Positions 45,647 through 63,729 of a stretch of 64,000 nt of DNA are shown here, piece after piece. Source of the stretch: an uncultured Candidatus Nitrosoarchaeum sp. (GTDB lineage Archaea; Thermoproteota; Nitrososphaeria; Nitrososphaerales; Nitrosopumilaceae); NCBI GenBank assembly GCA_938049695.1, contig CALKVM010000002.1, forward strand, positions 3,516 through 67,515, written 5' to 3'. Position numbers and translations under genes: made by a program. The notes below the pieces were generated by a model. The model saw only the letters and a program-made list of their open reading frames with translations. It ran no database searches and was not told the origin of the DNA. Position 1 is the stretch's first letter. Each line of letters opens with the position of its first letter.

Positions 45647-47041
45647 ATGTCTAGAACTATATTGTCATTATCAAAATTTGTAATATTTACAATAACTGTA
45701 ATAGCGATATCTTTACTATTTCCAGTATCTAACGTTTATGGACATGGATTTGGAATTGATACTATTCGTTCAGTCGATGTACAAGGAAAGAAAATTTCGA
45801 TTTCAGTTGAGCTTCCAATGGTTTTTGAGCAAACAAACGAAAAACAAATTACAGTTACAGCAACTGAAGATGAGACAAAAGAAAATGCAAAAAACGTTAC
45901 ATTTCTAATTGGTTTATTTCATGAAAACAAAATGATGTTTAGAAACTATTTTTTTGCATCTGATGGAGTTCTTCTAATCAAAATAAATTCTACACAAGAA
46001 GGTGAGATTACAATTCATGGAGAACAGGATTCTTTGTTAGGTGCATGGCATGGAACCGAATCTAATCCCATAATGATTTCTGGTCCTATTTTCAATTCGG
46101 GTGGATTGTACAATTTTGAAATCGAGGTAAGAACAATTGATGAACCAACAAATATAATTGAAAATTCTGGCATTTACAATGCAGATCTGAGTATTGTAGA
46201 TAGCACAGAATTTTTACAAAAAGATGCCGAAAATCAGGATGTAGAGTTTAAAATAAAATCATACTTTGATAATATCTCCAATTTTGAGTATGATCCTATT
46301 ACCAAACAAGTAACATTTGAGATGCCTTTTGATTGGGGTGAAAAACAAATGTCTCACATTCCATTTGTGCATGAAGAAGTACATTTTCCTAAGAATTTTG
46401 CTGAATTTATGTCTCCAAGTTATACAGGTAAAGCAAATGGAATTGACTTGTTTAAAGCATCAGTTACAATCGACGATTATACTGTAGATGATGAAAGAAT
46501 AGTTCATTTTGTTTTATTACAGGATCATCTTAGATTCATAAAGAACAAACTACAAAAATCCGGAGAACCATTACCTGATAAAATTACTTTTGTTCTTTCT
46601 AGATCTGAAAATATAGGATTTCCATTAACTTCATTTACAAAAAGTGAAGACTTTCAAGTGAATCTCTCATGGGATCCAATAGAAATTGCACCTGGACAAA
46701 ATACAAATTTTATCTTTACAATCAGAGATGGTAAAACTGGAGAACCATTACGTAATTCAGATTATACTTTTGTAATCATACAAAATGGCAAGGAAATTCA
46801 TAGAGCAACTGGAACTGCGCAAGTTGGTGGAGAATTTGAACGATATGAATTTGGTGAGGATCAAACAGGTCCTACAATTATTAGATTTGAAAATATTAGA
46901 AACACAGGTCAAGAAACTGATTTTGGAATAGTTGTTGCTCCTGAATTTGGAACTATTGCAATTATGATTCTATTTTCCACATTATTGGTAGTAGTTTTGG
47001 CATCAAGAAATCGCTTTTCAAAAAATCTAATTTCTAATTAA
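45647..47041 (+). CDS. secreted modular surface protein with PEFG-CTERM sorting signal; paralog of 59695-61260 and 62245-63729
   Basis: Signal peptide ending VYG|HGFG. Shared family blocks: GGLYNFEIEV, SYFDNISNFEYD...FEMPFDW and HEEVHFP. An Ig-like domain carries YTFVIIQNGKEI. The C-terminus PEFGTIAIMILFSTLLVVVLASRNRF (46940-47041) is the thaumarchaeal PEFG-CTERM pattern. Confidence 0.7.
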   Translation: MSRTILSLSKFVIFTITVIAISLLFPVSNVYGHGFGIDTIRSVDVQGKKISISVELPMVFEQTNEKQITVTATEDETKENAKNVTFLIGLFHENKMMFRNYFFASDGVLLIKINSTQEGEITIHGEQDSLLGAWHGTESNPIMISGPIFNSGGLYNFEIEVRTIDEPTNIIENSGIYNADLSIVDSTEFLQKDAENQDVEFKIKSYFDNISNFEYDPITKQVTFEMPFDWGEKQMSHIPFVHEEVHFPKNFAEFMSPSYTGKANGIDLFKASVTIDDYTVDDERIVHFVLLQDHLRFIKNKLQKSGEPLPDKITFVLSRSENIGFPLTSFTKSEDFQVNLSWDPIEIAPGQNTNFIFTIRDGKTGEPLRNSDYTFVIIQNGKEIHRATGTAQVGGEFERYEFGEDQTGPTIIRFENIRNTGQETDFGIVVAPEFGTIAIMILFSTLLVVVLASRNRFSKNLISN

Positions 47042-47043
47042 TT

Positions 47044-47427
47044 TTATAATGTTACTAATTTTACAGTATCCATATTTTTGTTTACTTGGAAATCTTTTGT
47101 AATAGTTGATACTCTTTCTGCATCACCATCAATTACAAATAATTCCATACATTTCTCTCCCTCAATTTTACTATGTAGATGTGTTGTAATCAAATCTTCA
47201 AAATTATGTTTTATTCCAGATACAACATGATCAAACTCATCATTATGAACAACTAAAAGAATAGCGTGAATATTTCCTGTTAATTCCAATTTTTGTTTTT
47301 CTTCTGAAACAAAAATTCTGATTCCTGCCCTTATTGCTTCAGACCTACCTGAAAAGCCCATAGTTTTTTGTAATTTATCTAATTCTGATAAAATCTCTTG
47401 ATTCAATGAAATTGAAACTATAGGCAT
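47044..47427 (-). CDS. nikR: NikR-family ribbon-helix-helix metal-responsive regulator
   Basis: N-terminal RHH (IVSISLNQEILSELDKL...GFSGRSEAIRAGIR) and a C-terminal ACT-like domain with His/Cys ligand candidates (HNDEFDH, THLHSKIEGEKC). Confidence 0.78.
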   Translation of the reverse strand: MPIVSISLNQEILSELDKLQKTMGFSGRSEAIRAGIRIFVSEEKQKLELTGNIHAILLVVHNDEFDHVVSGIKHNFEDLITTHLHSKIEGEKCMELFVIDGDAERVSTITKDFQVNKNMDTVKLVTL

Positions 47428-47431
47428 AAAT

Positions 47432-47451
47432 GATAATTGTTATTAATTATC
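47432..47451. promoter_or_regulatory. inverted repeat GATAATT-N6-AATTATC in the nikR / metal-ABC divergent intergenic region
   Basis: Read directly from the sequence, 5 nt upstream of the nikR start. AT-rich background, so chance is not excluded. Confidence 0.25.
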
Positions 47452-47487
47452 TTATAAGTTTAGCATTAAAGTTATTAACATTTTATA

Positions 47488-47503
47488 AAGTTATTAATAA
47501 CTT
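47488..47503. promoter_or_regulatory. perfect 16-bp palindrome AAGTTATTAATAACTT, candidate operator upstream of the metal ABC operon
   Basis: Perfect self-complement, 16 nt upstream of the GTG start at 47519. The half-site AAAGTTATTAA recurs at 47468-47478. Confidence 0.35.
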
Positions 47504-47518
47504 ATATCAAAATCGTGT

Positions 47519-48433
47519 GTGAATAGCCAAGTAAAACTAGCAATAATTGCAATTTCGATTACAATTCCTTTGATCTCATTTGCTGTTTTTTCAAGTGATT
47601 CAAACCAATTCAAGAAAACAAATGAATCCAAACTACAGGTTATGTCATCATTTTATCCGTTACATGAATTTTCACAAAATGTTGGTAAAGAAAAAGTTGA
47701 TGTAAAATTGTTAGTTCCAGTTGGAGTTGAACCTCATGATTGGGAACCAACAATAAAAGATGTACAACAAATGCAAAAATCTGATCTTATCATAATTAAT
47801 GGAATTGGATTTGAAAGTTGGGTTGATAAATTACATGAAATGAATTACCAAGGAGTGATAGTTGATACCAGTAATGGGATTATAAAAAATATTGAGGAAG
47901 AATCTATACATGATGAATATTCTGATGAATCTGGAGATCCCCATATTTGGTTAAATCCAGTTTTTGCAAAAATTCAAGTTCAAAATATTGCAAATGCATT
48001 TTCTAACTCAGATCCTGAGAATCGACAATATTTTCAAGAAAATGCTGCAAATTACATTGATGAATTAGATTTGCTAGATTCAAAAATTCGTAATGAATTA
48101 TTTGGGTGTAATCATGATTTTATTGCATTTCATGATTCCTTTTCATATTTTGCAGATGAATATGATCTCACACAATATACTATAATTTCTTCATATGCAC
48201 CACATACAGAACCCACTGCCAAGACTTTAGAAAATGTAATTAATAAAGCCAAACAGCTTGATGTTAAAGTTATTTTTACTGAAGAAACAGCTGATCCTAA
48301 AACTTCTCAAGTAATTGCAAACGAAATTGGAGGAAAAATACTAGTTTTATCTTCGTTAGAAATCGGTAATGATGGAACTTATATTTCTAGAATGACTGAG
48401 AATCTAAATCATCTGAAGGAGGCATTATGTTGA
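47519..48433 (+). CDS. metal ABC transporter substrate-binding protein (TroA/ZnuA cluster 9 family)
   Basis: SFYPLHEF, VEPHDWEP, DPHIWLNP and FHDSFSYFA are the metal-ligand His/Asp blocks of ZnuA/TroA-type proteins. GTG start. Confidence 0.85.
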   Translation: MNSQVKLAIIAISITIPLISFAVFSSDSNQFKKTNESKLQVMSSFYPLHEFSQNVGKEKVDVKLLVPVGVEPHDWEPTIKDVQQMQKSDLIIINGIGFESWVDKLHEMNYQGVIVDTSNGIIKNIEEESIHDEYSDESGDPHIWLNPVFAKIQVQNIANAFSNSDPENRQYFQENAANYIDELDLLDSKIRNELFGCNHDFIAFHDSFSYFADEYDLTQYTIISSYAPHTEPTAKTLENVINKAKQLDVKVIFTEETADPKTSQVIANEIGGKILVLSSLEIGNDGTYISRMTENLNHLKEALC

Positions 48434-49149
48434 AGATAGTAGAAATTGATCATCTTACAATACAATATCCTGATGTAAAAGCTATAGATGATGTTAGTTT
48501 TACGGTTAACCAAGGTGATTTTTTAGGCATAATTGGTCCTAATGGAGCAGGAAAATCCACACTTTTCGCTTCAATGCTTAGTCTTAATACAAAATACAAA
48601 GGCACAATCAAATTTTTTGGTACTGATATTAGAAAATCAAGAAACTATCTTAAAGAGATTGGTTATGTACCACAGAAACCAATCTTTGAGAAAAACTTTC
48701 CTGCAACAGTTAATGACGTTGTTAAAATGGGATTACAAAAAGAATCCGATGAAAGTAAAATTGATGAAATTCTGCAACAACTTTGGATACATGAGCTGAG
48801 TAAAAAAAGAATAGGTGAACTATCTGGTGGACAACAACAACGTGTATTTATTGCAAAAGCCTTAGTTAACAATCCTAAAGTTTTGATTTTAGATGAACCT
48901 GTTACAGGTATCGATCAACAAAGCATCGATCTTTTTTATAGTATTTTAAAAGAACTAAACTCCAAACAAAACATTACAATAATTTGGTCTTCCCATGATC
49001 TGGATGCAGTAAATAAATTAGCAAATCATGTAGCTTGTCTTAACCGAACTCTTTTCTTTCATGGAGAATCTGATGATTTCTTTAGCAATGATGATCTTGT
49101 AAAACAATATTCTGAAGCTTCTATGCAGGAACACATGCATCATCATTAG
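48427..49149 (+). CDS. metal ABC transporter ATP-binding protein (ZnuC-like) with His-rich tail
   Basis: Walker A GPNGAGKST, signature LSGGQQQR, Walker B LILDEP. C-terminus QEHMHHH. Confidence 0.9.
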   Translation: MLKIVEIDHLTIQYPDVKAIDDVSFTVNQGDFLGIIGPNGAGKSTLFASMLSLNTKYKGTIKFFGTDIRKSRNYLKEIGYVPQKPIFEKNFPATVNDVVKMGLQKESDESKIDEILQQLWIHELSKKRIGELSGGQQQRVFIAKALVNNPKVLILDEPVTGIDQQSIDLFYSILKELNSKQNITIIWSSHDLDAVNKLANHVACLNRTLFFHGESDDFFSNDDLVKQYSEASMQEHMHHH

Positions 49150-49151
49150 AA

Positions 49152-49973
49152 ATGACTTTTGAAATTTTTACTTTTAGTTTTATGCACAGAGCAATTATTT
49201 CAGGCATTGCAATTGCAATTTTATGTTCAGTAGTTGGTCTTTTCTTAGTTTTAAGACGTTATTCATTATTTGGCGACGCTATTGCTCACTCATCATTTGG
49301 TGGAATTGCATTAGGTTTGATGGTAGGAATTTATCCACTTTGGACTGCCTATGGTGTTTCAATAGTCAGTGCACTAATTATGACACGAATTAAAGATAGA
49401 TTCAACATATCTGGAGATGCCTCAATAGCAGTTCTTTTATCATCAGGAATTGCTGTAGGTCTCGTAATTATTGGATTATCTGGAGGATTTACTCTTGATA
49501 TTTTCAGCTTTCTTTTTGGAAGTATCTTGCTTGTTAGTGTTAATGATACAATTCTAATTTTATCATTGACAGGAATTATTCTGATTGTAATTCTTTTACT
49601 CTATCGCCAACTTCTTTACTCTACATTCAACGAAGAACAGGCAAAAGTCAGTGGTGTACCAGTTGAAAAAATCAATTATCTTATTGTCTTTATGGCTGGA
49701 ATTACTGTTGTAACTTCGATACAACTAGTTGGTGTTTTACTAATTTCTGCACTCTTTGTAATTCCAAATGTAACTGCAATAATGTATGGAAGGGGCTTCA
49801 AACAAACTGCAATAATTTCAATGAGTTTTTCTATATTTTCTGTGGTTGCTGGAATATTCATCTCATATATTTTTGATATAACCCCAGCAGGAACAATTGT
49901 ATTATTTGCAATTGGAATATTTGCATGTACAATGGGAATAAAGTCTGCTGGACTATTATCCAGACATAATTAA
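49152..49973 (+). CDS. metal ABC transporter permease (ZnuB-like)
   Basis: A multi-TM ABC-3 family pattern (GDAIAHSSFGGIALG). Confidence 0.9.
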   Translation: MTFEIFTFSFMHRAIISGIAIAILCSVVGLFLVLRRYSLFGDAIAHSSFGGIALGLMVGIYPLWTAYGVSIVSALIMTRIKDRFNISGDASIAVLLSSGIAVGLVIIGLSGGFTLDIFSFLFGSILLVSVNDTILILSLTGIILIVILLLYRQLLYSTFNEEQAKVSGVPVEKINYLIVFMAGITVVTSIQLVGVLLISALFVIPNVTAIMYGRGFKQTAIISMSFSIFSVVAGIFISYIFDITPAGTIVLFAIGIFACTMGIKSAGLLSRHN

Positions 49974-52733
49974 TTCATTTAATCTTCTTTTATCTTTTAG
50001 ACTTTTGACAAAAAATAATGATGTTGCAATTATACCCATTGCAATTAATGGCGATGCAATCTCGGTATATTTTAGTTGAAAAATATCTGTATCTGGTATT
50101 TGAGATATTGTTATGGGAATCTCTGTAGTCTTTATCATTGCTAATTTGTTTCCTTGTTGTTCAACAAACCAAACATTGTCTTTATCATCAGATGTTAAAA
50201 ATTGTACAAACGATGTTGCAGTTGGAATTGGAACCTCAATTAAATTTTTGTTATCTGGATCATATGCAGCAATTTTGTCTACTGTATGTTCTGCAATCCA
50301 AATATTTCCATATCTATCAAATGACATTCCATTAGGTGATGCTTCTTGATTTGGTACTGAAATTCTTTCAAATGTTTCAAGAATTGGACTAAATTTGGTA
50401 ATTGCTATTCCTGTATGTTCTGCAATCCACAAATTCCCTTTATCGTCAAAAACCAGAGCCTCAGGTGATGCAAGAGGCTTTTCAGGCACAAATTCTGTTA
50501 TATCATTATTTTTTGGATTGATAAATCCTATTTTACCAGAGGCTGATTCAGTAAACCAAATTTTTCCTTCATCATCAATTGTCAAGGCAAACGGCAGTGA
50601 TTCTCTTGCAAGCATCTTAATTTCTTCAAACGTATCTGATTCTGGTTGATATTTTAAAATCATACCTTTGTTGGTAATTGAAATCCAAATATTTCCATCA
50701 AAATCTGCTTGTATGAAAGTAGGAATATTATCCGAAATCATAGGTACTATTTTTGGTAAACTTTTTGTGGTAATTTGTTTATTACTTGGATCAAAGTACC
50801 CGATCTGATTTCTTGGTGTATCAGTAAACCAAATTTTTCCTTGATTATCTTGTGTAAGAAATATGGTGGTTAATCCGTCAAATGAATATGATGTAAATTC
50901 TTGCGTATCAAGTGAGAATTGCCATAATTTAGGAGAAGATGGATCACTTATCCAAATTGAATTTTTTCCATCATACAAAGGGTAAAGAGGTTTTGAAGAT
51001 TCAGGTAATTCGTATTCTATAATTTCTGTTTTCAGATCTGTTAATCTTGGTTTAACTAGTAAATTCATGAAAATTGATTCGTTTGCACTCTGATTTCTTT
51101 GAGTCTCTATTTCCACTTGCCACTGACCCGAAAATCCAAATGTTAAATCTCCTTGAAATTCAACTGGTTTACCTATCTCCTGTTTGATGATTTTCATGGG
51201 GACTTCTATTGGGGAAATATTTCTTTGTGGATTGGAGATCTTTACTTTGATTTCATTTGAATCATTCAACGGATTGTTTTCCAGATCGCTAACTTTGACT
51301 AAAATTGTATTTGCACCGCTAGAAAATGGTGTTATTTTAATATCAAATTTTGTATTTTCTGAAAACTCTATTGTACTGAAATCGTATGAAATTTTTTGCG
51401 CATCAGCTTGTTTTATTTCTCCAGCAGGCAAAGTTCCATTAGCAAGCAGTGCAACAACCCCTAAAAGAGCAATTCCTAATACAACATCGAATTTCAATGA
51501 TCTTTTTAGTTTCTTGTATACTGCAATGGATCCTGATTGTAGATCTTTTTCAGCCTTTTTTTGAATCTTAAACTGGAAATACCCTCCTAATCCAACCATG
51601 ATTGCTGCAATAGAAATTTTTACAAGAATTAATTTCCCATATACTGACTCGGTGATCAAGCCTACATCACTTTCCAAAAACCACATGAGTGTTGGTCCAG
51701 TAATTATCACAACTCCTACTGCAACGATAAACATAATTGAAAATCTTGGAATTAAAACAAGTGTCATCCTCTCACGTTTTGCTTCTTCCAATTGCGAAAA
51801 TGTAGGTAGTAACGTAAATACAAAATAAATTATGCCTCCGATCCACACTGCAGCCACAAAATTATGAATATAATCTAAAATAATTGCAGAAGTCTCTCCA
51901 CTGGCTGCACCATGTCCAATCAAACTTGAAGTTCCAATTAATCCAAGTGTAACTGCAAGCATTGGAATTTTATTTTTTATAGATAGATTCTTTTTTCTAT
52001 CCATTCCAAACCACAAACCAAGAAGAATAATTGTAATTATCATTCTGATTAGCCATATATTTCCAAAATCAGTTTTAATTACTTCAAAAACTGAAGTTTC
52101 TAATCTTACGGTTTGTACTACTAACATCAAAATATTTGATACAAAAATCAGCACTAATCCAATACCTGTAATTGTCATGAATTTTCCATGATGGACAGAT
52201 TCTAGTTTGTCTAATTCTTTTCTGATTAACTGTTTACTTTGAGTTCCCCAGATTAGTATTGAAGCAATTACAACACCTAACACAATGGTTTGACCTACAA
52301 GTCCTGGAAATCTTGATCCTGCTTCAGGCAAAAACACAAGTTCACTTGGTTGTAATTGCTGTTCAGGAACTATTACATCCCCTACTCCAAAATTAAATGC
52401 ACTAGGTACAAGATGTCCGTCAACTTTTGAGAGAACATTACTTGTTACTGTATAGACTCCGCTCTCTAATGGAGGAGTAGTGACTACTAGAGATTTTTCA
52501 TCTTCAAAATATTTTGTATCTTTGTTATCTATCTGTTCTCCATTATTATCAAATACTTTGAGAGAACTAAAATTAACATCAATTGGTTCTGAAAAATAAA
52601 CTATGACTTGTGTTAATCCCTCAGCTGCATTTGCTGATGAATTTGGACTAGTTTCCATAGTAAATGGATGAGCCGCAGCATATGGAATAGACATTGATAA
52701 AATTAATAGTGAAATAATTAAAAATTTCCTCAT
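49956..52733 (-). CDS. CopC-CopD fusion protein extended by an Ig-like region, a seven-bladed beta-propeller and a C-terminal TM anchor
   Basis: Signal peptide, then AA|HPFTMETSP...VIVYFSEPI...GVYTVTSNVLSKVDGH (CopC). About 8 TM helices follow (CopD). Seven repeats of the type KIWFTDTPRNQIGYFDP / NIWIAEHTVDKIAAYDP resemble streptogramin-lyase or NHL-like blades. Terminal TM: IASPLIAMGIIATSLFFV. Confidence 0.8.
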   Translation of the reverse strand: MRKFLIISLLILSMSIPYAAAHPFTMETSPNSSANAAEGLTQVIVYFSEPIDVNFSSLKVFDNNGEQIDNKDTKYFEDEKSLVVTTPPLESGVYTVTSNVLSKVDGHLVPSAFNFGVGDVIVPEQQLQPSELVFLPEAGSRFPGLVGQTIVLGVVIASILIWGTQSKQLIRKELDKLESVHHGKFMTITGIGLVLIFVSNILMLVVQTVRLETSVFEVIKTDFGNIWLIRMIITIILLGLWFGMDRKKNLSIKNKIPMLAVTLGLIGTSSLIGHGAASGETSAIILDYIHNFVAAVWIGGIIYFVFTLLPTFSQLEEAKRERMTLVLIPRFSIMFIVAVGVVIITGPTLMWFLESDVGLITESVYGKLILVKISIAAIMVGLGGYFQFKIQKKAEKDLQSGSIAVYKKLKRSLKFDVVLGIALLGVVALLANGTLPAGEIKQADAQKISYDFSTIEFSENTKFDIKITPFSSGANTILVKVSDLENNPLNDSNEIKVKISNPQRNISPIEVPMKIIKQEIGKPVEFQGDLTFGFSGQWQVEIETQRNQSANESIFMNLLVKPRLTDLKTEIIEYELPESSKPLYPLYDGKNSIWISDPSSPKLWQFSLDTQEFTSYSFDGLTTIFLTQDNQGKIWFTDTPRNQIGYFDPSNKQITTKSLPKIVPMISDNIPTFIQADFDGNIWISITNKGMILKYQPESDTFEEIKMLARESLPFALTIDDEGKIWFTESASGKIGFINPKNNDITEFVPEKPLASPEALVFDDKGNLWIAEHTGIAITKFSPILETFERISVPNQEASPNGMSFDRYGNIWIAEHTVDKIAAYDPDNKNLIEVPIPTATSFVQFLTSDDKDNVWFVEQQGNKLAMIKTTEIPITISQIPDTDIFQLKYTEIASPLIAMGIIATSLFFVKSLKDKRRLNELIMSG

Positions 52734-52836
52734 TTACTTTTCAGGTTATCTTTGACAATTTAAACAGTTTTCATTTACTTTGAAGTTTGTACCAATCTAC
52801 GTAAAGATAATAACATGTTACAATAAAGTAACAGTC

Positions 52837-53463
52837 ATGAAAGTTATTACTTTGGGATTAATTGGATTATTATTTTCTGTTGGATTTGTATCACAATCTT
52901 TTGCTCATACAACAGTTGAGGTAGAACCTTACAAAATTGAAGTAGGTTGGGGACTAGAACCTCCAGTTGTAAGTATAAGAAATGATTTTGTTTTTAAAAT
53001 AACTGAATCTGGTGATACTCCAAATTCGTACACAGGAGTTACGAATGCATTCAAAAATATAGAAGTTACAGCCATGTTTGGAGGAGTCTCAAAGAAAATT
53101 GATATCCACTCAGATCCCAAACTAGGATATTATTTTTCACCTGTAATCCCCACAAAGACTGGAACCTATATTGTGGATTTGAAAGGAGAAATTAATGGAA
53201 TTCCAATAGATGTGCAAATTCCAGTCGAAGATGTAGAAAGTACTGCAGTATTGGATTTTCCACAAACTAGTGGCTCTTCATCAGATCAAGATGTGATTTC
53301 ACTCAAAAATGCAATTTCATCACTACAAAGAGATGTCTCATCCATGAAAGATGGTTCAGAAAATGTTAATGGTGGTGCAGCATATGACTTTGCAGTTTTT
53401 GGATTGTCTATTGCAGCAGCTGCAATAATCTTGGCAATAGTTGCTTTAATAAAAAGAAAATAG
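52837..53463 (+). CDS. secreted protein with predicted mature N-terminal His and C-terminal TM anchor (possible YcnI/DUF1775-like copper-binding fold)
   Basis: Signal peptide MKVITLGLIGLLFSVGFVSQSFA|HTTVEVEP, a beta-rich body, and the C-terminal anchor FAVFGLSIAAAAIILAIVALIKRK. The family call is tentative. Confidence 0.5.
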   Translation: MKVITLGLIGLLFSVGFVSQSFAHTTVEVEPYKIEVGWGLEPPVVSIRNDFVFKITESGDTPNSYTGVTNAFKNIEVTAMFGGVSKKIDIHSDPKLGYYFSPVIPTKTGTYIVDLKGEINGIPIDVQIPVEDVESTAVLDFPQTSGSSSDQDVISLKNAISSLQRDVSSMKDGSENVNGGAAYDFAVFGLSIAAAAIILAIVALIKRK

Positions 53464-53477
53464 AAAAAAGTTAATTC

Positions 53478-54344
53478 CTAAAATCTTGGAATTACTTTAG
53501 ATTTTGCAGTAACAGCAACAATGCTTATGATTGAAACGGCTAGTATCATCATTGCAACTGTTCCAAATTCTGGAACAATGTTTGAAAATACTACTTGTTC
53601 ACCTATAGGTCCTGTCTTTGGTTCATCTACTCCAAAACCTTGGAAGGTAATGGTGACCTCTACTGGATCTGATGAGCTAAGTGGTGCTGTTTCATGCATA
53701 CCTTCTCCCTCATGGCCATGTGCAGCAATATCATTTAGTACTTCTGCACCATTTTGTGTTACCATGACGTCATAGTTTGCATGTTCTGAATCTTCAAAGT
53801 CAACTGTGATTTCCATTTTTTCACCTGAAGTTGGTGCGGAAGTCATAATTGAAACTTTTGTGCCATCAGATAACATTCCAGTTGCAGTTGCATCTTCTGT
53901 ATGCATCTCTTCACCGGTATGTTCTTCATCTTCATGTTCTTCTGTTCCTGCTTCTTGTACTACAATTAATCCTGTCATCCATGGATGAACCATTGAAAAG
54001 TAGTGATATTCGCCTGGCTCTTCAAATTTGAATGAAAAAGAACTTCCCGGCTCTACTAAACCACTATCAAAGAATCCATCAGGACCAGTCTCAGCTGTAC
54101 CACTTGTTATGGTAGTTGAGGAAGTGCCATCATTTGTCCATATCACTTCACCGCCTACATCCACAGTTGCCTCATGTGGAATATAGCACTCATTTGTCTC
54201 CTCACATCCTTGTGTATCAGAACCTGGTGCAATACTGACATTAACTTCTAAATGATCAGCATAAGCATTGCCAAATCCTATCGACATTACCATAACAGCA
54301 AGTAACTGTATTGTCAATACTGTATACGTTGATTGTTTTTTCAT
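53478..54344 (-). CDS. cupredoxin-like surface protein lacking two type-1 copper ligands, with acidic/His linker, Ig-like domain and PEFG-CTERM
   Basis: Plastocyanin-like block GCEETNECYIPHEATVDVGGEVIWTNDGTSSTTITSG...GEYHYFSMVHPWMTG. Linker EEHEDEEHTGEEMHTED. Ig-like domain with NYDVMVTQNGAEV. C-terminal PEFGTVAMMILAVSIISIVAV at 53478-53573. Confidence 0.7.
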   Translation of the reverse strand: MKKQSTYTVLTIQLLAVMVMSIGFGNAYADHLEVNVSIAPGSDTQGCEETNECYIPHEATVDVGGEVIWTNDGTSSTTITSGTAETGPDGFFDSGLVEPGSSFSFKFEEPGEYHYFSMVHPWMTGLIVVQEAGTEEHEDEEHTGEEMHTEDATATGMLSDGTKVSIMTSAPTSGEKMEITVDFEDSEHANYDVMVTQNGAEVLNDIAAHGHEGEGMHETAPLSSSDPVEVTITFQGFGVDEPKTGPIGEQVVFSNIVPEFGTVAMMILAVSIISIVAVTAKSKVIPRF

Positions 54345-57517: not shown

Positions 57518-58816
57518 TTATACCACAATAATTTTTCGCTTGACAAGATTTTCAATCATCTTTAGAAAATCATCATCTGAAATTTTATCTTCGGACCACC
57601 AACCTGCTGTTGTTTTGATCCATGATGGTAATTTCCAATTTGATTGAGCAGTTATTTCTTTTGATGTTACTACTACAATTCCTTTTTTAAACAAAAAGTC
57701 AATTCCTTCAAGAAATTCTGAGTCAGATATTTGATCTGTAGACCACCAATTTGCGTTTGTTTTTACCCATTGCGGAATTTTAGAGGTTTCAGGAGGCAAC
57801 CCTTTTTCAAAACCAGTAATCTTTAGAATTCCTTGTGACGTTGGCCCTACAGTAAATGCAACATGCCAAAACCCGATATCATCTATACTTTGAATAAATT
57901 TTACAGGTTTATCATTTAGAGTGACATTGAATTTTTCTTTATCTGAAATTTGTGGAAATTCAAAGTTTGCATAGGTCTCAAGTGGGTAACTATTGTATCC
58001 GCGTATTGTAAGAGTTGTTCCTTCTTCATTGAATTTAGCAGCAGAATACCACGCACCTGAATCATATCTAAAATCAAAATTACCTCCATTTTTCTTTGCA
58101 GTAATTGGAACAACAGTAGTATCCAAAGGAGCAAAACAGCTATAGTAAAAAACATCATCAGTTATTGAAGGATCAGGATACATTGAAAATTCTAGAATTT
58201 CACCAGGCTCTATTTTGTCAATATATTCAATATTGTGAACAATATCGAGTACTTTTTCATGACCATGAGCTATTGCAAGAATTTTTGGGTTGAAGATGGT
58301 TTGATTTCCATTATTATGAATTCTTCCTGTAACATGACCGTCATCATGTTTGACTAATGTTTTATCATAAAGAATCTCAATTGATATTGGATCTTTTTGT
58401 GTTTTTACAAATTTGAGTTCAGCTGTAAGTAAGATAGGAGTATCTCCTGTAACTTCAGGAAATTTTGTTTTAAATGGGATATCTGTGTTTGGTGGAATTG
58501 GAACATGATATACTGTCTTGGTAAATGTATTGTCTCCATCAATTACAGAAACTAAAATGGTTGGAATTACAGCATAGTCATTTTGGTTTTTTACATTGCC
58601 TCCAACTGTATATACGCCTTCATAATCAAAATATCCAATATATTGTTCTGGTGGTATCAAAACCTCGGCAAATGTAAATTGAGAAATAAGTAATGATGTA
58701 AACATGAATCCAATTAGAATAAATACTATTTTTGATTGTAATAGACTAGAAAGCGTTGATAATATCTTCGAATCCAGATGTGGGTTTTTCAAGTAAGCTT
58801 GGTCGATAGTCTTCAA
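57518..58816 (-). CDS. membrane-anchored or secreted beta-rich protein ending in two Trp-rich modules of about 35 aa
   Basis: N-terminal TM helix IVFILIGFMFTSLLISQF. C-terminus IPQWVKTNANWWSTDQISDSEFLEGIDFLFKKGIV and LPSWIKTTAGWWSEDKISDDDFLKMIENLVKRKII (57518-57778). The 5' end overlaps the upstream regulator gene by 71 nt. Confidence 0.65.
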   Translation of the reverse strand: MKTIDQAYLKNPHLDSKILSTLSSLLQSKIVFILIGFMFTSLLISQFTFAEVLIPPEQYIGYFDYEGVYTVGGNVKNQNDYAVIPTILVSVIDGDNTFTKTVYHVPIPPNTDIPFKTKFPEVTGDTPILLTAELKFVKTQKDPISIEILYDKTLVKHDDGHVTGRIHNNGNQTIFNPKILAIAHGHEKVLDIVHNIEYIDKIEPGEILEFSMYPDPSITDDVFYYSCFAPLDTTVVPITAKKNGGNFDFRYDSGAWYSAAKFNEEGTTLTIRGYNSYPLETYANFEFPQISDKEKFNVTLNDKPVKFIQSIDDIGFWHVAFTVGPTSQGILKITGFEKGLPPETSKIPQWVKTNANWWSTDQISDSEFLEGIDFLFKKGIVVVTSKEITAQSNWKLPSWIKTTAGWWSEDKISDDDFLKMIENLVKRKIIVV

Positions 58817-59246
58817 TTAATTGATCTATTACCTTTCTTGTTTTAATATAATATCTCTTTCTTAGATTTTCAAGTCTTACTTCAACTTGTTCATCTTGGA
58901 CTAGTTGTGATAGATATAGAGAAACTGTGGAAGGTGATTTTCCTACCACGTCAACTAGTTCACTAAACTCTAGTCCGTCTTGTTTTATGAGAGCTAATAA
59001 CAGATCTCTTGGGGTTTGTCTACGTAATGCTTTGATAGTTTTTGATTCATCTTCGGTAATTCCTGGTGGATAAAATCTGGATTGTCTTGGACCACGCACT
59101 ACTTTGATTATACCATGTTTTTCTAATTTACCAAGATAGTGACTAAGAACACCATTTTTTAATCCAGAAGAACGCATTATTTCTCTGAATTGAATTCCTG
59201 GATTCTGATCTATGATTTGCTGTAATTGTGTATTTCTATCAGTCAT
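58746..59246 (-). CDS. tandem winged-helix transcription regulator (paralog of 55501-56067)
   Basis: IIDQNPGIQFREIMRSSGLKNGVLSHYLGKLEKHGIIKVVRGPRQSRFYP plus a second wHTH, LLLALIKQDGLEFSELVDVVGKSPSTVSLYLSQLVQDEQVEV. Confidence 0.75.
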   Translation of the reverse strand: MTDRNTQLQQIIDQNPGIQFREIMRSSGLKNGVLSHYLGKLEKHGIIKVVRGPRQSRFYPPGITEDESKTIKALRRQTPRDLLLALIKQDGLEFSELVDVVGKSPSTVSLYLSQLVQDEQVEVRLENLRKRYYIKTRKVIDQLIEDYRPSLLEKPTSGFEDIINAF

Positions 59247-59631
59247 TTCTAAACACTCCCAATGCTAACAATCCCAGTGTACTAAATGTCAATAAATGTC
59301 CTATCTCTAATAGAGACATATAACCTAAATCATAAAGTGTAGGCCATGTGGCATCAATTACTAAAACTGATTCAGCTACAATAAAAGTTACAAAAGCAAG
59401 TGTACTAAGTAAAAGTCTTTTTGTTTTTAATTTAGAATATGCCAATATTGCAAGAATTGTAATGAATACTGCAAGTGTAATTCCAGCAATATGCAAAAAG
59501 ATGTGTGCTAAATGAAACCCATGTAAGAGATGAGGCATTATTACGGGAATTGCCAATATTGCCACTACACCTATAACTACAACAGAGAATAACGTTGACT
59601 TACGTTCAATAAGACTCCGAGGTCTAAACAA
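59239..59631 (-). CDS. four-TM membrane protein with a histidine ladder
   Basis: PHLLHGFHLAHIFLH places H34, H37, H40, H43 and H47 on one helical face between TM1 and TM2. The stop overlaps the regulator start by 8 nt. Confidence 0.6.
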   Translation of the reverse strand: MFRPRSLIERKSTLFSVVVIGVVAILAIPVIMPHLLHGFHLAHIFLHIAGITLAVFITILAILAYSKLKTKRLLLSTLAFVTFIVAESVLVIDATWPTLYDLGYMSLLEIGHLLTFSTLGLLALGVFRND

Positions 59632-59694
59632 ATCACAGAAAATGTTGTTTTTACAGATTTAAACAGACTGGTTCATACTTCGAATTAGATGCGA

Positions 59695-61260
59695 TCAGAT
59701 ATGAAGAATTTTATTTTGTATTAAATATCGTATTCCCTGAACAAAAGTTTCATCGTCAATTTGTCCATTTGACCACCACTTTGCATTGTTTTTAATCCAA
59801 GATGGAATTTCATTTGTTTCGGTGCCTGTACCTTGAGAAGTTGGAGGAATATTCATTATTTTCTCTTTTATCAAATATTGAATTCCTTTAACAAATGAAC
59901 TATCATCAATCTGTCCATCTGACCACCAAGCTGCATTGGTTCGTATCCATTTAGGTATTGAAATACCATTATTTTCATGTGATATGGGATTAATTATAAT
60001 TGGAATAGATGTTTTTGCAAGATCATTATCTCCAAGATTTAGAAAATTCAGATGTACAATTCCAGTTAGATCATCAGGTATTGTAAATTCTGCTGTGTTA
60101 TGTTTTTCTTTAGAATCACTACTAATTCCACTTTGTTTGAAAATTATTTTATCATTTTGAGTAATTGAAAAATCATAATTTACTGCTATGGGTCTATTTT
60201 TTAGAAAAATATCAGTAACATCAAAATAGATTGTTGCTTTGGAATTTGATTGTAAATTTTTTGGTTCCCAAGATGTAATAATTCGAAATTGTCCATTTTC
60301 AGTTACTGAACTTAATTGAATATCATCTGAATTTGGTTTGATAAGAAAATTCATTCCATTTAGGTTTGAATTATGTTTGTAAATATTCCATAATTCTTTT
60401 TGACTAATAATAAAATGAACTACTCTTCCATCAGAAAAAAAATCATCGATTGTTACAATATCGTCAGATAATTTGATTTCGTTTACATACACAGAAAATC
60501 CAGATACCAGTAGATCTCCAAATGTTTTTGGAATTATTAATTCTTCATGGATTACAGAAGTTTGATTAATGTTATTAGCACTCCATTCAAAAGGCATGGA
60601 AAAAGTGATTTCTTTGGATTCAATATCATAGTGAAAATTCTTTATTTCGTCATAGTATGTAACAACATTAATTATTTGTGGGCCAAAAACAGAATGATTA
60701 ATTTCATGTTTAGATGTTTGTGCAATTGAAATTCCGGCATCGAAAGTCAGTGGCACATCTAATTTCTTTGAATAACCATCGGCTGTAAGAATACGAATAT
60801 CAAACTTGTATAGTCCACCCTCACTTAGTTTTGGACCCTTTACATTGACCATTCTATTTTCTAATCCAAGTAATGAACCAAAGAAATCTTTCTTGTTCTC
60901 TTCTTGAACTTGAATTGTGTCAGTATTTTCGGATATGAAATTAAAAACTATAATTCCATTATGACTTTGAAATTCTTTTTCAAAAAGAAATTGTTCGCCA
61001 CGACTAGATTTTATCAAAAATGTGACATCTCTAAGTGTAATTTTTGAATTAAAATCAATTAGTGAAATTGATATTTGCTGATCATCATTTTTATCTGGAT
61101 TATTTGGAGATGATGAAACTTCTAGACTTACTTGTTTTCCATACAGATCAACCGGTGGAAATATTTCACTTCCTACACCATGACCATAAACATCTACAAG
61201 TGTTAAAGAAGAAATAGAAATTAAAAACAAAATAAGCAAATGTAATATTTTTCCTTGCAA
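59695..61260 (-). CDS. secreted modular surface protein (paralog family) ending in two Trp-rich modules
   Basis: Signal peptide ending VYG|HGVG. Family blocks: GGLYKFDIRI, TYYDEIKNFHYD...FSMPFEW and HEELIIP. Ig-like domain with NYDFSITQNDKII. C-terminal modules IPKWIRTNAAWWSDGQIDDSSFVKGIQYLIKEKIM and IPSWIKNNAKWWSNGQIDDETFVQGIRYLIQNKIL (59695-59958). Confidence 0.7.
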   Translation of the reverse strand: MQGKILHLLILFLISISSLTLVDVYGHGVGSEIFPPVDLYGKQVSLEVSSSPNNPDKNDDQQISISLIDFNSKITLRDVTFLIKSSRGEQFLFEKEFQSHNGIIVFNFISENTDTIQVQEENKKDFFGSLLGLENRMVNVKGPKLSEGGLYKFDIRILTADGYSKKLDVPLTFDAGISIAQTSKHEINHSVFGPQIINVVTYYDEIKNFHYDIESKEITFSMPFEWSANNINQTSVIHEELIIPKTFGDLLVSGFSVYVNEIKLSDDIVTIDDFFSDGRVVHFIISQKELWNIYKHNSNLNGMNFLIKPNSDDIQLSSVTENGQFRIITSWEPKNLQSNSKATIYFDVTDIFLKNRPIAVNYDFSITQNDKIIFKQSGISSDSKEKHNTAEFTIPDDLTGIVHLNFLNLGDNDLAKTSIPIIINPISHENNGISIPKWIRTNAAWWSDGQIDDSSFVKGIQYLIKEKIMNIPPTSQGTGTETNEIPSWIKNNAKWWSNGQIDDETFVQGIRYLIQNKILHI

Positions 61261-61352
61261 GTCTTCTTTTATTTCCTGATTGTCTATTTAAAAATCTAGA
61301 TTAAGTTATTCTCAAATATTCTTTATTTGAATCAAAATAAATTATTATGGAT

Positions 61353-61946
61353 TTATTGGTGTTCTGAATGAACTGTTGGATTGGCAGAAACACCAAGATG
61401 TGCGTGCATTGATTCATAGTCGTATACAATTCCCATGCCAGTAAGTTTTACAGTAACTGTTGTTTTATCTTTCCAACCGCTTGGAATATCTGTACTTCCA
61501 TACAAGTAATTATTTCCAACAAATATTGTAGTACTCTGATCAATTCCATTTTTTGCTGAACTAATTTCTGTTAATGTAACTTCTAGAGTTGTATTATCGA
61601 CAGGATGAACATGTGTTATTTTTACACCTGGAACAGAGCTCATTGTTTGATAGTGAGGTTCACAGTAAGCTGGAGCCATCATTGAATCTTGATGACATAA
61701 CTGGTGAATAGTTCCTGGAGCATAGAATTGTCCATGACGACTTTGTCCGCCACCTGGACTAGACATGCCACCCATGCCAGACATTCCGCTCATGCCACCC
61801 ATGCCAGACATTCCGCTCATGCCACCCATGCCAGACATCATTGTCTGCATGTGATTCATCTGTATCACATTACCTCCATAAGCACCAGCTAGAATACCAA
61901 CACTAAATGTGGCTGCAATTATAGCAATCAGTATGTATCGATTCAT
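61353..61946 (-). CDS. secreted Met/Gly-rich repeat protein (candidate Cu(I)-binding)
   Basis: Signal/TM segment, then MNHMQTMMSGMGGMSGMSGMGGMSGMSGMGGMSSPGG. The C-terminal beta-rich domain has Cys and His residues. Confidence 0.7.
   Translation of the reverse strand: MNRYILIAIIAATFSVGILAGAYGGNVIQMNHMQTMMSGMGGMSGMSGMGGMSGMSGMGGMSSPGGGQSRHGQFYAPGTIHQLCHQDSMMAPAYCEPHYQTMSSVPGVKITHVHPVDNTTLEVTLTEISSAKNGIDQSTTIFVGNNYLYGSTDIPSGWKDKTTVTVKLTGMGIVYDYESMHAHLGVSANPTVHSEHQ
61758..61838 (-). repeat. 27-bp in-frame tandem repeat, about 2.8 copies (CATGCCACCCATGCCAGACATTCCGCT on the plus strand)
   Basis: Identical units at 61764-61790 and 61791-61817, and a partial unit at 61818-61838. Each unit encodes SGMSGMGGM. 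Confidence 0.9.
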
Positions 61947-62015
61947 TACTGAAGATTTTTTCGAAATTTTATGTATATGTTCATAGGAAGATTCTCAAAA
62001 GTGATAAAGATGTAA

Positions 62016-62222
62016 TCAAGTCCATTTGGTTGGATCTTTTTTCCAAATTTGTTTGCCATCAACAGTTACTTGATCTTTTTCTTCAAAGACAGTATGCCAT
62101 TTTCCATTATGAGGAAAAATTTTATTCATTTCTTCTACTTTTTTGTTAGTTGGTGCTTTATTCATTAAAGCTCCCCATCTCATGTTAGGTACCTTGGGAA
62201 GAATATCATTAATGTCCTTCAT
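62016..62222 (-). CDS. small hypothetical protein
   Basis: A 68-aa Lys/Trp-rich ORF with no TM helix and no recognisable motif. Confidence 0.4.
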   Translation of the reverse strand: MKDINDILPKVPNMRWGALMNKAPTNKKVEEMNKIFPHNGKWHTVFEEKDQVTVDGKQIWKKDPTKWT

Positions 62223-62244
62223 ATTTCATCATAAATTACTAAAA

Positions 62245-63729
62245 TTATTGTTCAATTCTCATTATTCCCTCTTTGATCAAATATTGTATTCCTTGAACAA
62301 AAGAGTTATCGTCAATTGAGCCATCTGCCCACCACCCAGCATTGTTTTTAATCCAGGGTGGGATTTGGTTACTTCCTGATCCTGAACCTATATCAAATGA
62401 TGTGCTAGATATTCCAGAGAATGTTTGTAAATTATCTAATCCATGACTGAAAATTGCCAATGTCATTTTGTATTTACCTGCAGATTTGAAATTAAATTCT
62501 GGTTTGTCAATACCTTCTGTCAAAAGTATACCAGGCGAATTAGGATCAGTATTTTTTGATTCATAGATTTTAGCTCCTGAAGAGTCTTCTATTCTGTAGC
62601 CATATGTTACCCATTTTAGTAATTTGTTATCTTTATCAAAAAAGGTTATTTCAAATGGTATTTTTTCATCTGAAGTTAATTTAGAATCATATTTTACTTT
62701 AGCAAATGCACCACTATCAAATTTCATATCAAATGAATTTTTTTCTGCCATCAAACCAGTATCTGGAGATAGACTAAATTCCATTGTTTTTGTTCCAGGT
62801 TTGTTAATTTTGGCTATATCCAAAATACTTTCTTTGCTTAACAAAAAGTGAAGAATTAACGTATTATCCATTGAATATGGATCAGCAATTAACATTCTAC
62901 CTGTAACAGGAAATCCATTTACAGCTGCTTTGTATGTTCCAGCTTGTGAAAATTCTTTAAATGAAGTTGGGAAATGAATTTCTTCATGAACAAAAATGTT
63001 TTGTGTTTCTAGTCTTGATGCATCCCAGTTAAATGGCATTGAAAATGAAACTAATTTTTTAGATTCATCATAGTTAAAATTATTTATTTTATCATAGTAT
63101 GATGTAACAGTTAAATCATAAGATTTGCCTCCAGTTGAAACTGTTTGATCAAAAATATCTCCAACACTAAGCCAAGAATCGAATCGTGGTGCTTCAGATT
63201 GAATAAAGATATTTTTGTCATGATCTATTCCAAAAATTTCTATTTCAAAGTGGTACAATCCTGCATCAAGTAAAATTGGGGCCTTTACAGTGATTTTATC
63301 ATTTATTGAAGTCCATCCTCCTTGAAATGGTTCTTCATCGCCATACACAATAACATCATTTACATCTAGATCTTCAGATTGAATTTTAATGGTTAAATTA
63401 CCAGAATGTGTATGAAACAAATCTCTCATCAAAAGTTTTCCGTCTTTGTCAACCGTCACAAAAAATGATGTGTGTTTGATTGTTTCTCCTGTTTTGGCAT
63501 CAAAAAGACGTAATTCTAAAAATTTATCACCAACTGTATCTTTGGTAAGAATTGGTGGGCTGATTTTGATAAACAAGCTAGCATCTCTATCACCTACACT
63601 TGCCGGAGGAAGATTTTCTTGTGTAAATCCATCGCCATAAACATATGAAGGAATCTGGGAAATTATCAACAGAGATATAGAAAAAATCAGAACAGTTGAA
63701 TTATTCATAATATTATCTAATTTGGACAT
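62245..63729 (-). CDS. secreted modular surface protein (paralog family) ending in one Trp-rich module
   Basis: Signal peptide ending VYG|DGFT. Family blocks: AGLYHFEIEI, SYYDKINNFNYD...FSMPFNW and HEEIHFP. C-terminal module IPPWIKNNAGWWADGSIDDNSFVQGIQYLIKEGIM (62248-62364). Confidence 0.7.
   Translation of the reverse strand: MSKLDNIMNNSTVLIFSISLLIISQIPSYVYGDGFTQENLPPASVGDRDASLFIKISPPILTKDTVGDKFLELRLFDAKTGETIKHTSFFVTVDKDGKLLMRDLFHTHSGNLTIKIQSEDLDVNDVIVYGDEEPFQGGWTSINDKITVKAPILLDAGLYHFEIEIFGIDHDKNIFIQSEAPRFDSWLSVGDIFDQTVSTGGKSYDLTVTSYYDKINNFNYDESKKLVSFSMPFNWDASRLETQNIFVHEEIHFPTSFKEFSQAGTYKAAVNGFPVTGRMLIADPYSMDNTLILHFLLSKESILDIAKINKPGTKTMEFSLSPDTGLMAEKNSFDMKFDSGAFAKVKYDSKLTSDEKIPFEITFFDKDNKLLKWVTYGYRIEDSSGAKIYESKNTDPNSPGILLTEGIDKPEFNFKSAGKYKMTLAIFSHGLDNLQTFSGISSTSFDIGSGSGSNQIPPWIKNNAGWWADGSIDDNSFVQGIQYLIKEGIMRIEQ

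Follow-up and report, generated by a model that had tools for sequence, protein, structure and literature searches.

A Trp-rich tandem module that alternates with PEFG-CTERM in secreted proteins of ammonia-oxidizing archaea, and its possible role in retaining exported proteins at the cell envelope

The DNA analyzed here, referred to as the window, is a stretch of 64,000 nucleotides (nt) from an uncultured Candidatus Nitrosoarchaeum sp. (assembly GCA_938049695.1, contig CALKVM010000002.1, positions 3,516 to 67,515). Three of its open reading frames (ORFs), named here by their first coordinate as 57518, 59695 and 62245, encode proteins with a hydrophobic leader at the N-terminus and a Trp-rich module of 37-38 amino acids (aa) at the C-terminus (Table 1). 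When a hidden Markov model (HMM) built from five module copies was compared with the six-frame translation of the 64 kb, it recovered exactly five copies with domain E-values of 1e-22 to 1e-25, while the next best match had an E-value of 0.05. Both the number and the positions of these copies agree with a first-pass annotation that had been made by inspection of the sequence. Alignment of the five copies gives 11 invariant columns (P, W, A, WW, I, D, F, I, L and I). The likeness of the 59695 and 62245 copies at the DNA level, previously noticed by eye, corresponds to 70-75% nucleotide identity overall: copy 1 of 59695 is 75% identical to the 62245 copy (73% at the amino acid level) and copy 2 is 73% identical (65% at the amino acid level). 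The module had been described as a repeat of about 35 aa; the repeat is real, but its usual unit is a tandem pair.

Table 1. Features of the window discussed in the text (positions in the window; aa positions are those of the encoded protein)
Feature	Positions (nt)	Strand	Description
45647 protein	45647-47041	+	paralog, 464 aa: same core and Ig-like domain as 59695, PEFG-CTERM end, no module
PEFG-CTERM of 45647 protein	46934-47023	+	aa 430-459; nt computed from aa positions
NikR-like regulator	47044-47427		metal neighbourhood
ZnuA with its ABC ATPase and permease	47519-49973		metal neighbourhood
CopC-CopD-YtkA-propeller fusion	49956-52733		925 aa; metal neighbourhood
Secreted 227-aa protein	52780-53463		His right after predicted cleavage site (SFA/HTTVEV), C-terminal hydrophobic helix, no Pfam match
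53478 protein	53478-54344	-	cupredoxin-like, secreted
PEFG-CTERM of 53478 protein	53493-53579	-	aa 256-284
57518 protein	57518-58816	-	secreted, about 432 aa: unrelated core without assigned family, C-terminal module pair
Module copy 2 of 57518 protein	57521-57631	-	aa 396-432, to the final residue
Module copy 1 of 57518 protein	57668-57778	-	aa 347-383
Winged-helix regulator	58746-59246		between the 57518 and 59695 genes
Small membrane protein	59239-59631		between the 57518 and 59695 genes
59695 protein	59695-61260	-	secreted, 521 aa: signal peptide, core of about 300 aa, Ig-like domain, C-terminal module pair
Module copy 2 of 59695 protein	59698-59808	-	aa 485-521, to the final residue; predicted (AlphaFold2) helices 58-68 and 74-86 of the pair model
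Module copy 1 of 59695 protein	59848-59958	-	aa 435-471; predicted (AlphaFold2) helices 8-18 and 24-36 of the pair model
Secreted protein with long Met/Gly-rich run	61353-61946		metal neighbourhood
62245 protein	62245-63729	-	secreted paralog, 494 aa: common core, different beta-rich middle segment, one C-terminal module
Single module copy of 62245 protein	62254-62364	-	aa 456-492 of 494; stop comes 2 residues later

The 45647, 59695 and 62245 proteins, proposed earlier to have a common core, are clear paralogs, with pairwise E-values of 9e-42 (45647 and 59695), 5e-37 (45647 and 62245, over about 310 aa) and 1e-43 (59695 and 62245). The alignment of 45647 (aa 29-417) with 59695 (aa 23-409) covers the whole ectodomain including the Ig-like domain. 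It starts just past the signal peptide and stops where the PEFG-CTERM of the one protein and the module pair of the other begin, the two proteins diverging only at their ends. The Ig-like domain had also been said to recur in the cupredoxin-like 53478 protein. This link holds between 45647 and 59695, which align through the domain, but the similarity of 53478 to 45647 is weak (E-value: 5e-5 over 111 aa) and lies partly in the PEFG-CTERM itself. The 57518 protein, rightly described as unrelated, has no Pfam or NCBIfam family match and has the module pair alone in common with 59695 (E-value: 1e-20 over 86 aa). The 62245 protein stops right after its copy 1, and no remnant of a second copy was found in the 300 nt downstream of the stop codon. 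A relative of this protein encoded in a Nitrosopumilus metagenome-assembled genome (MAG) (L011:2-1060, E-value: 8e-65) is colinear with it to the end and has a second module copy.

The module is also very widespread beyond the window. When 1.84 billion cluster representatives were searched exhaustively with HMMER, 5,763 module matches were obtained at E ≤ 1e-3 (each a cluster at 50% identity, nearly all of them belonging to Nitrososphaeria), with 3,682 of these at E ≤ 1e-10 and 849 at E ≤ 1e-30. At least 568 module stretches were confirmed when species-representative genomes were scanned with a pattern. A word-indexed search with a 43-aa profile returned only fragments of up to 76 aa, which hold no architecture information. 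For 78 of the best 80 genomic loci, the record label names a Nitrososphaeria-type archaeon (labels include Nitrosarchaeum, Nitrosopumilus, Nitrosopelagicus, Nitrosotalea, Nitrosotenuis and Nitrososphaeraceae); loci of Nitrosarchaeum are nearest to the window, at 93-98% identity. The other two bear bacterial labels. The first, L010 (record labelled Phycisphaerales bacterium), comes from an 18-kb contig, has 36% G+C and carries 62245-like, 59695-like and 57518-like genes in the order of the window; it is probably from an archaeal contig mis-binned into a bacterial MAG. The second, L016 (L016:2-5326, on an 854-kb contig of a Myxococcota MAG), has a G+C content of 54% in the locus and 48% in the module pair. 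Its protein of more than 1,775 aa has no Pfam family match and carries an internal module pair with an HExxH motif (HEYGH) further downstream. This appears to be a genuine bacterial occurrence, perhaps acquired by horizontal transfer. In the viral collection IMG/VR, the module was found in two loci only (L081:4117-6932 and L082:1-780). As both look cellular, the former being an importer operon of the ATP-binding cassette (ABC) type and the latter encoding a cupredoxin surface protein, there is no evidence in this collection that viruses use the module.

PEFG-CTERM is an archaeosortase-type, presumably lipid, anchor. The two PEFG-CTERM ends noted in the window on first inspection score above the cut-off (25 bits) of the curated model TIGR04296, with 35.9 bits in 45647 and 46.0 bits in 53478, while 57518, 59695 and 62245 have no match to this model at E ≤ 1. 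The suggestion that module and PEFG-CTERM exclude one another extends well beyond these five proteins. Among the matches listed, each of the 120 orthologs of 45647 (73-100% identity) carries a PEFG-type tail and lacks the module, and each of the 120 orthologs of 59695 (65-95% identity) carries the module and lacks a PEFG tail; two copies are present in 116 of the latter and one copy in four. The anchor exchange between these two orthogroups is old and stable. Five candidate cases, one of them Nitrosopumilus sp. K4, suggest that both paralogs coexist in one genome. In a wider sample, regular-expression and hydropathy tests found a PEFG-type tail in none of 150 diverse module-bearing representatives and in none of the 118 module ORFs of the 80 loci, and it is on these tests that the absence of TIGR04296 from the 36 proteins with N-terminal or internal modules is based. 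Four other ORFs of the same loci, which lack the module, do have such a tail. No transmembrane-like segment was found beyond residue 50 in any of the 150 representatives. Cupredoxins are a second, independent case of the alternation: the window cupredoxin (53478) ends in PEFG-CTERM, and the cupredoxins of locus L082 and of three representatives with a Copper-bind Pfam match carry the module pair.

The position and conservation statistics given here are those of the best-scoring 150 of the 5,763 clusters and of loci that were chosen for containing the module. In the 150 representatives the module is C-terminal in 112 (about 75%), directly past the signal peptide in 29 (19%) and internal in nine (6%). 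In the genomic loci, it ends within 5 residues of the stop in 95 of 116 complete ORFs and lies elsewhere in the remaining 21, which include a few artefacts (frameshift, masked sequence). Two copies are present in most proteins, separated by a linker with a mean length of 12.5 aa that is rich in Ser, Thr, Glu and Pro; single copies are found in 62245 and in proteins of L031, L058, L066 and L073. In 24 proteins, an N-terminal module starts 5-23 aa past the hydrophobic region of the signal peptide, with AxA-like cleavage sites just ahead of it. The idea that the module replaces PEFG-CTERM at the C-terminus thus holds in this window. For the family as a whole, in which the C-terminus is not the only place of the domain, it is too narrow. 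An internal location, which the first-pass annotation had itself named as an observation that would tell against its proposal, is one of the placements found, as is the N-terminal one. The module is a portable folded domain. Its N-terminal and internal positions and its folded nature rule out a sortase-type C-terminal signal, but such placement does not argue against attachment; non-covalent wall-binding domains are likewise portable in position.

The extracytoplasmic domains to which the module is joined are diverse and unrelated to one another. Among 114 representatives there are 54 partner Pfam families, including HYR, matrixin, Hcp, NHL, PsbP-like, cupredoxin, PEBP, pentapeptide repeats, Big, polysaccharide deacetylase, thermopsin, subtilase and amine oxidase. 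In phosphonate-type ABC substrate-binding proteins (L031 and L081), the signal peptide is directly followed by one or two modules, and in the L081 operon the gene for a binding protein with an N-terminal module pair is flanked by a permease gene and an ATPase gene. The L082 protein combines a cupredoxin and an HYR domain with the module pair. Two representatives are giants: P0121 (4,046 aa) has three internal module pairs and a reprolysin-like peptidase domain, and P0123 (4,762 aa) has two internal module pairs together with glucodextranase-B and LamG-like domains. In three other representatives the module is found with an Hcp (T6SS_HCP) domain, which is unexpected for archaea.

From an alignment of 67 diverse pairs, AlphaFold2 predicted four helices at residues 8-18, 24-36, 58-68 and 74-86 with a mean predicted local distance difference test (pLDDT) score of 88.9 and a predicted template modelling (pTM) score of 0.79. 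In this model the pair is predicted to consist of two helix-loop-helix halves that form one compact four-helix unit, with a confident mutual arrangement. A single-sequence AlphaFold2 run on the entire 59695 protein gave no usable model (mean pLDDT 31.6). Across 140 pairs, both copies keep P3, W5, K7, N8, N9, A10, W12, W13, I18, D20, F23, G26, I27, Q28 and L30 at approximately 75-100%. On both helices, hydrophobic residues recur with helical periodicity (i, i+1, i+4, i+7, i+8) and probably make up the core. Polar residues such as K7, N8, N9, D20 and Q28 show very strong conservation in the two copies even when the host proteins are unrelated, and because these positions are not needed for the core, the conserved Lys, Asn, Asp and Gln residues suggest a common putative binding surface, in a sample that is biased to high scores. 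A metal-binding module is unlikely as there is no conserved His, Cys or Met.

Two alternative functions can be considered here. In the first, already named as an alternative in the first-pass annotation, the module would serve in oligomerization: halves would pair with each other, closing within the chain in two-copy proteins and joining two chains in one-copy proteins such as 62245, which would dimerize. The packing of the halves against each other in the AlphaFold2 model and the existence of single-copy proteins are consistent with this proposal. However, the great majority of proteins have a complete pair, which would be self-satisfied and have no drive to oligomerize, and neither the exclusivity with membrane anchors nor the presence of the module on ABC binding proteins would be explained. 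We consider oligomerization to be quite unlikely. In the second, the module would be an interfacial membrane binder that keeps the protein on the lipid surface by embedding its amphipathic, Trp-rich helices in the outer leaflet of the tetraether membrane. Each module has three invariant Trp residues as well as Phe and Tyr, and it stands in for a lipid or transmembrane anchor. In addition, the best match of the module profile among PDB sequences (E-value: 0.54) is a scaffold that takes its name from the 4E10 epitope of HIV gp41, a segment that is Trp-rich and close to the membrane. This match is at chance level, though, and the helical periodicity and compact predicted unit place most of the aromatic residues probably in the core, leaving a surface rich in Asp, Glu, Asn, Lys and Gln. 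Insertion into the membrane therefore strikes us as improbable to much the same degree.

The core of the 45647, 59695 and 62245 proteins has no relative in Pfam, NCBIfam or the PDB, where a 30-sequence core profile retrieved no sequence at E ≤ 10. An alignment of 30 family members shows a near-invariant His in the motif YGHG at the predicted signal-peptide cleavage site and invariant H238, E240 and H282 (59695 numbering). An HExxH motif is present in 45647 and 62245 (HEEVH and HEEIH, respectively) and kept in 119 of the 120 listed 45647 orthologs; in the 59695 orthogroup the second His is lost (HEELI in 59695). On the basis of these motifs and of the gene neighbourhood described below, the core may bind metal, perhaps copper.

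Names in NCBI and UniRef would lead to a different view, namely that these proteins are peptidases and that the module is a part or a regulator of a Zn-dependent protease. Module-only fragments and 59695 orthologs are named "peptidase" or "Secreted periplasmic Zn-dependent protease", and names of the peptidase type are borne by P0001-P0120, P0294, P0314, P0459, P0462 and P0479. The HExxH motif of 45647 and 62245 could be taken in the same sense, and genuine matrixin proteins with the module pair do exist (L060, L072 and L080, with the motif HELGHGIGLKH). We nevertheless give this reading almost no credence for four reasons. First, no peptidase family in Pfam or NCBIfam matches 57518, 59695 or 62245 at E ≤ 1, and none of the three has HExxH within a recognized peptidase fold or profile, by which zinc metallopeptidases are defined. 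Second, the same names are given to 45647-type PEFG-CTERM orthologs that lack the module, which indicates that they have spread by similarity. Third, the 59695 orthogroup, to which the name is applied, has lost the second His. Fourth, at least 54 families occur in fusion with the module, and peptidases are a minority among them. True peptidase domains were found only in other module-bearing proteins, such as L060 and its relatives and the reprolysin-like P0121. As no peptidase model matches and the name is also found on module-less orthologs, "peptidase" looks like a propagated misannotation.

The window contains a metal and copper gene neighbourhood in two parts (47044-54344 and 61353-61946), the members of which are listed in Table 1. 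The gene at 52780-53463 is located between the CopC-CopD gene and the cupredoxin gene, and because of these flanking genes its product may be another copper-handling protein. Two winged-helix regulators adjoin module genes; one of them lies between the 57518 and 59695 genes, together with a gene for a small membrane protein. The TTG start listed for the 57518 ORF overlaps the end of this regulator gene by 71 nt (58746-58816), and the true start of 57518 is for this reason probably further downstream. Genes like 59695 and 57518 are also adjacent, approximately 880 nt apart, in about ten other genomes, a synteny conserved in loci L004, L006, L007, L009-L012, L014, L038 and L055.

Our preferred explanation, which we hold with moderate confidence, is that the module is a non-covalent domain that retains or docks exported proteins at the cell envelope of ammonia-oxidizing archaea. 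An anchor-like role is indicated because the module is found on exported proteins only, is joined to many different ectodomains, is accompanied by no second anchor and is exchanged with PEFG-CTERM in two families. The binding itself and its target we infer from these architectures. The module pair would be an autonomously folding extracytoplasmic unit, with a Ser/Thr/Pro-rich linker of about 12 aa between halves of about 38 aa, that binds one conserved envelope component of these archaea non-covalently. Candidate targets would be the S-layer protein (at its inner face or its unresolved tenth Ig-like domain), a SlaB-like stalk, or a glycoconjugate at the membrane surface. A common binding partner fits with the conservation of the polar positions in both copies across unrelated hosts, and a lineage-specific target fits with the predominance of Nitrososphaeria-type archaea (78 of the best 80 loci). 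Exported proteins that have nothing else in common would in this way stay on the cell surface or within the pseudoperiplasm; ABC substrate-binding proteins, for example, need to stay near the membrane. In the family of the window, the module would occupy the PEFG-CTERM slot of the sister paralog, and the same ectodomain would be held in two ways.

Several points weigh against envelope retention. The support for attachment is all architectural, and the position and conservation figures come from a high-scoring and module-selected sample. Foldseek searches of the PDB and BFVD gave no analogue pointing to any particular function. The S-layer might retain soluble pseudoperiplasmic proteins in any case, making a tether dispensable. 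The Myxococcota protein (L016) has a module pair in an organism without an archaeal envelope, and the internal pairs of the giants P0121 and P0123 fit a protein-protein or structural role equally well. A broader version of the retention hypothesis would make the pair a key for surface display in general in ammonia-oxidizing archaea. In such a system, many different exoproteins of a cell (copper proteins, binding proteins of transporters, peptidases and giant proteins resembling adhesins) would plug non-covalently into one conserved receptor at the inner side of the S-layer or on a SlaB-like stalk. In this case the Myxococcota organism may have acquired the same key on its large HEYGH protein, perhaps to bind these archaea. 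If true, such a system would organize the pseudoperiplasm, the site of ammonia oxidation, but we regard this broader version as speculative and rather unlikely.

Retention of exported proteins is of particular interest in these organisms. Ammonia-oxidizing archaea rank with the most abundant microbes of both ocean and soils, and their key chemistry takes place at the membrane and under the S-layer. To our knowledge, it is largely unknown how their exported copper and nutrient-binding proteins are retained there. The passages on anchoring in the published Nitrosopumilus maritimus S-layer structure leave open how the S-layer itself is anchored, and these passages do not mention the module (PMC11153153). 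A single domain that no family model covers, that is present in thousands of protein clusters and that is interchangeable with PEFG-CTERM offers a handle on the retention problem. The module defines a large "surface proteome" from sequence alone, and the pair provides a bait of about 90 aa for an envelope receptor. Recognition of the module would also correct the widespread "peptidase" misannotation of proteins without a peptidase domain.

With respect to known families, the first-pass annotation knew of no published function for the module, and we found no curated model, solved structure or paper that covers it. The strings NNAGWW and WIKNNA and the source names gave no literature match, and the sections of the PEFG-CTERM literature available to us do not touch on the module. 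Nor was there a match to a well-characterized domain, which that annotation had counted as a possible argument against its proposal. The module has no match in Pfam-A 2025 or NCBIfam 20.0, and when ten module pairs were compared with Pfam with listing to E = 10 (HMMER filters drop most matches above E of about 0.1), only chance-level similarities appeared, the best having an E-value of 0.0054 and a score of 16.3 bits against a cut-off of 28.7. Foldseek comparison of the pair model gave 41 matches in the PDB, all with E ≥ 2.5 and a template modelling (TM) score of at most 0.30, and a best E-value of 0.61 in BFVD.

Four known systems come closest to the module. Pseudomurein-binding repeats (PMBR, PF09373) of methanogens are, like the module, archaeal wall-binding repeats of similar size (about 33 aa) if the module does bind the envelope. 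PMBR was the only envelope-binding family to appear in the Pfam comparison, in one of the ten sequences and over 10 residues (E-value: 0.038, 14.5 bits against a cut-off of 24.9); this likeness is at chance level. We know of no pseudomurein in Nitrososphaeria. PEFG-CTERM (TIGR04296) shares with the module its architectural slot in sister paralogs and in cupredoxins, the two being mutually exclusive. However, PEFG-CTERM is a tripartite signal (motif, transmembrane helix and basic tail) that is obligately C-terminal and presumably processed to give a covalent anchor, while the module is a soluble folded domain that is also seen in N-terminal or internal positions.

Type I dockerins (PF00404) of cellulosomes are domains of about 70-90 aa that are usually C-terminal after a Pro/Thr-rich linker. 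The module pair resembles them in being internally duplicated (75-90 aa), with two predicted helix-loop-helix halves whose loops have a conserved DG.I.D motif, in being mostly C-terminal after Ser/Thr/Pro-rich linkers on many different enzymes, and in the strong conservation of both copies. By analogy, the pair could be a plug that binds a dedicated cohesin-like receptor on one scaffold protein, giving defined extracellular complexes of many enzymes and metal proteins, with no binding to the envelope at large. The calcium ligands of EF-hands and dockerins are acidic or amide residues at loop positions 1, 3, 5, 9 and 12. With the conserved Gly of the module loop set as position 6, Gly/Lys falls at position 1 and Trp at position 3, and the calcium-binding consensus D-x-[DN]-x-D-G is absent. 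Furthermore, the ten pairs gave no Dockerin_1 or EF-hand match in the Pfam listing, within the reach of the HMMER filters described above, and no dockerin was among the Foldseek matches. Membership of the EF-hand/dockerin families was rejected on these grounds. Nor do we know of a receptor family or a cohesin-like partner for the module. A plug of this kind acting on a scaffold is in our opinion doubtful.

The S-layer homology (SLH) domains of bacteria (PF00395) offer the comparison that is nearest to the retention hypothesis. They are found N- or C-terminally on unrelated enzymes and surface proteins, which they hold non-covalently at the envelope. The module is also small, repeated and mainly helical, occurs on many unrelated secreted proteins and is portable in position. 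In contrast to SLH domains, which have three repeats of about 55 aa, it has two copies of about 38 aa, and it shows neither an SLH sequence match in Pfam nor an SLH fold match in the PDB with Foldseek. The ligand of SLH domains is a pyruvylated secondary cell-wall polymer, of which we know of no report in Nitrososphaeria. Although the module falls outside SLH domains, dockerins and the wall-binding modules in every comparison of sequence and predicted fold made here, its architecture suggests that it behaves like them, as a small portable domain that would hold many unrelated exported proteins in place.

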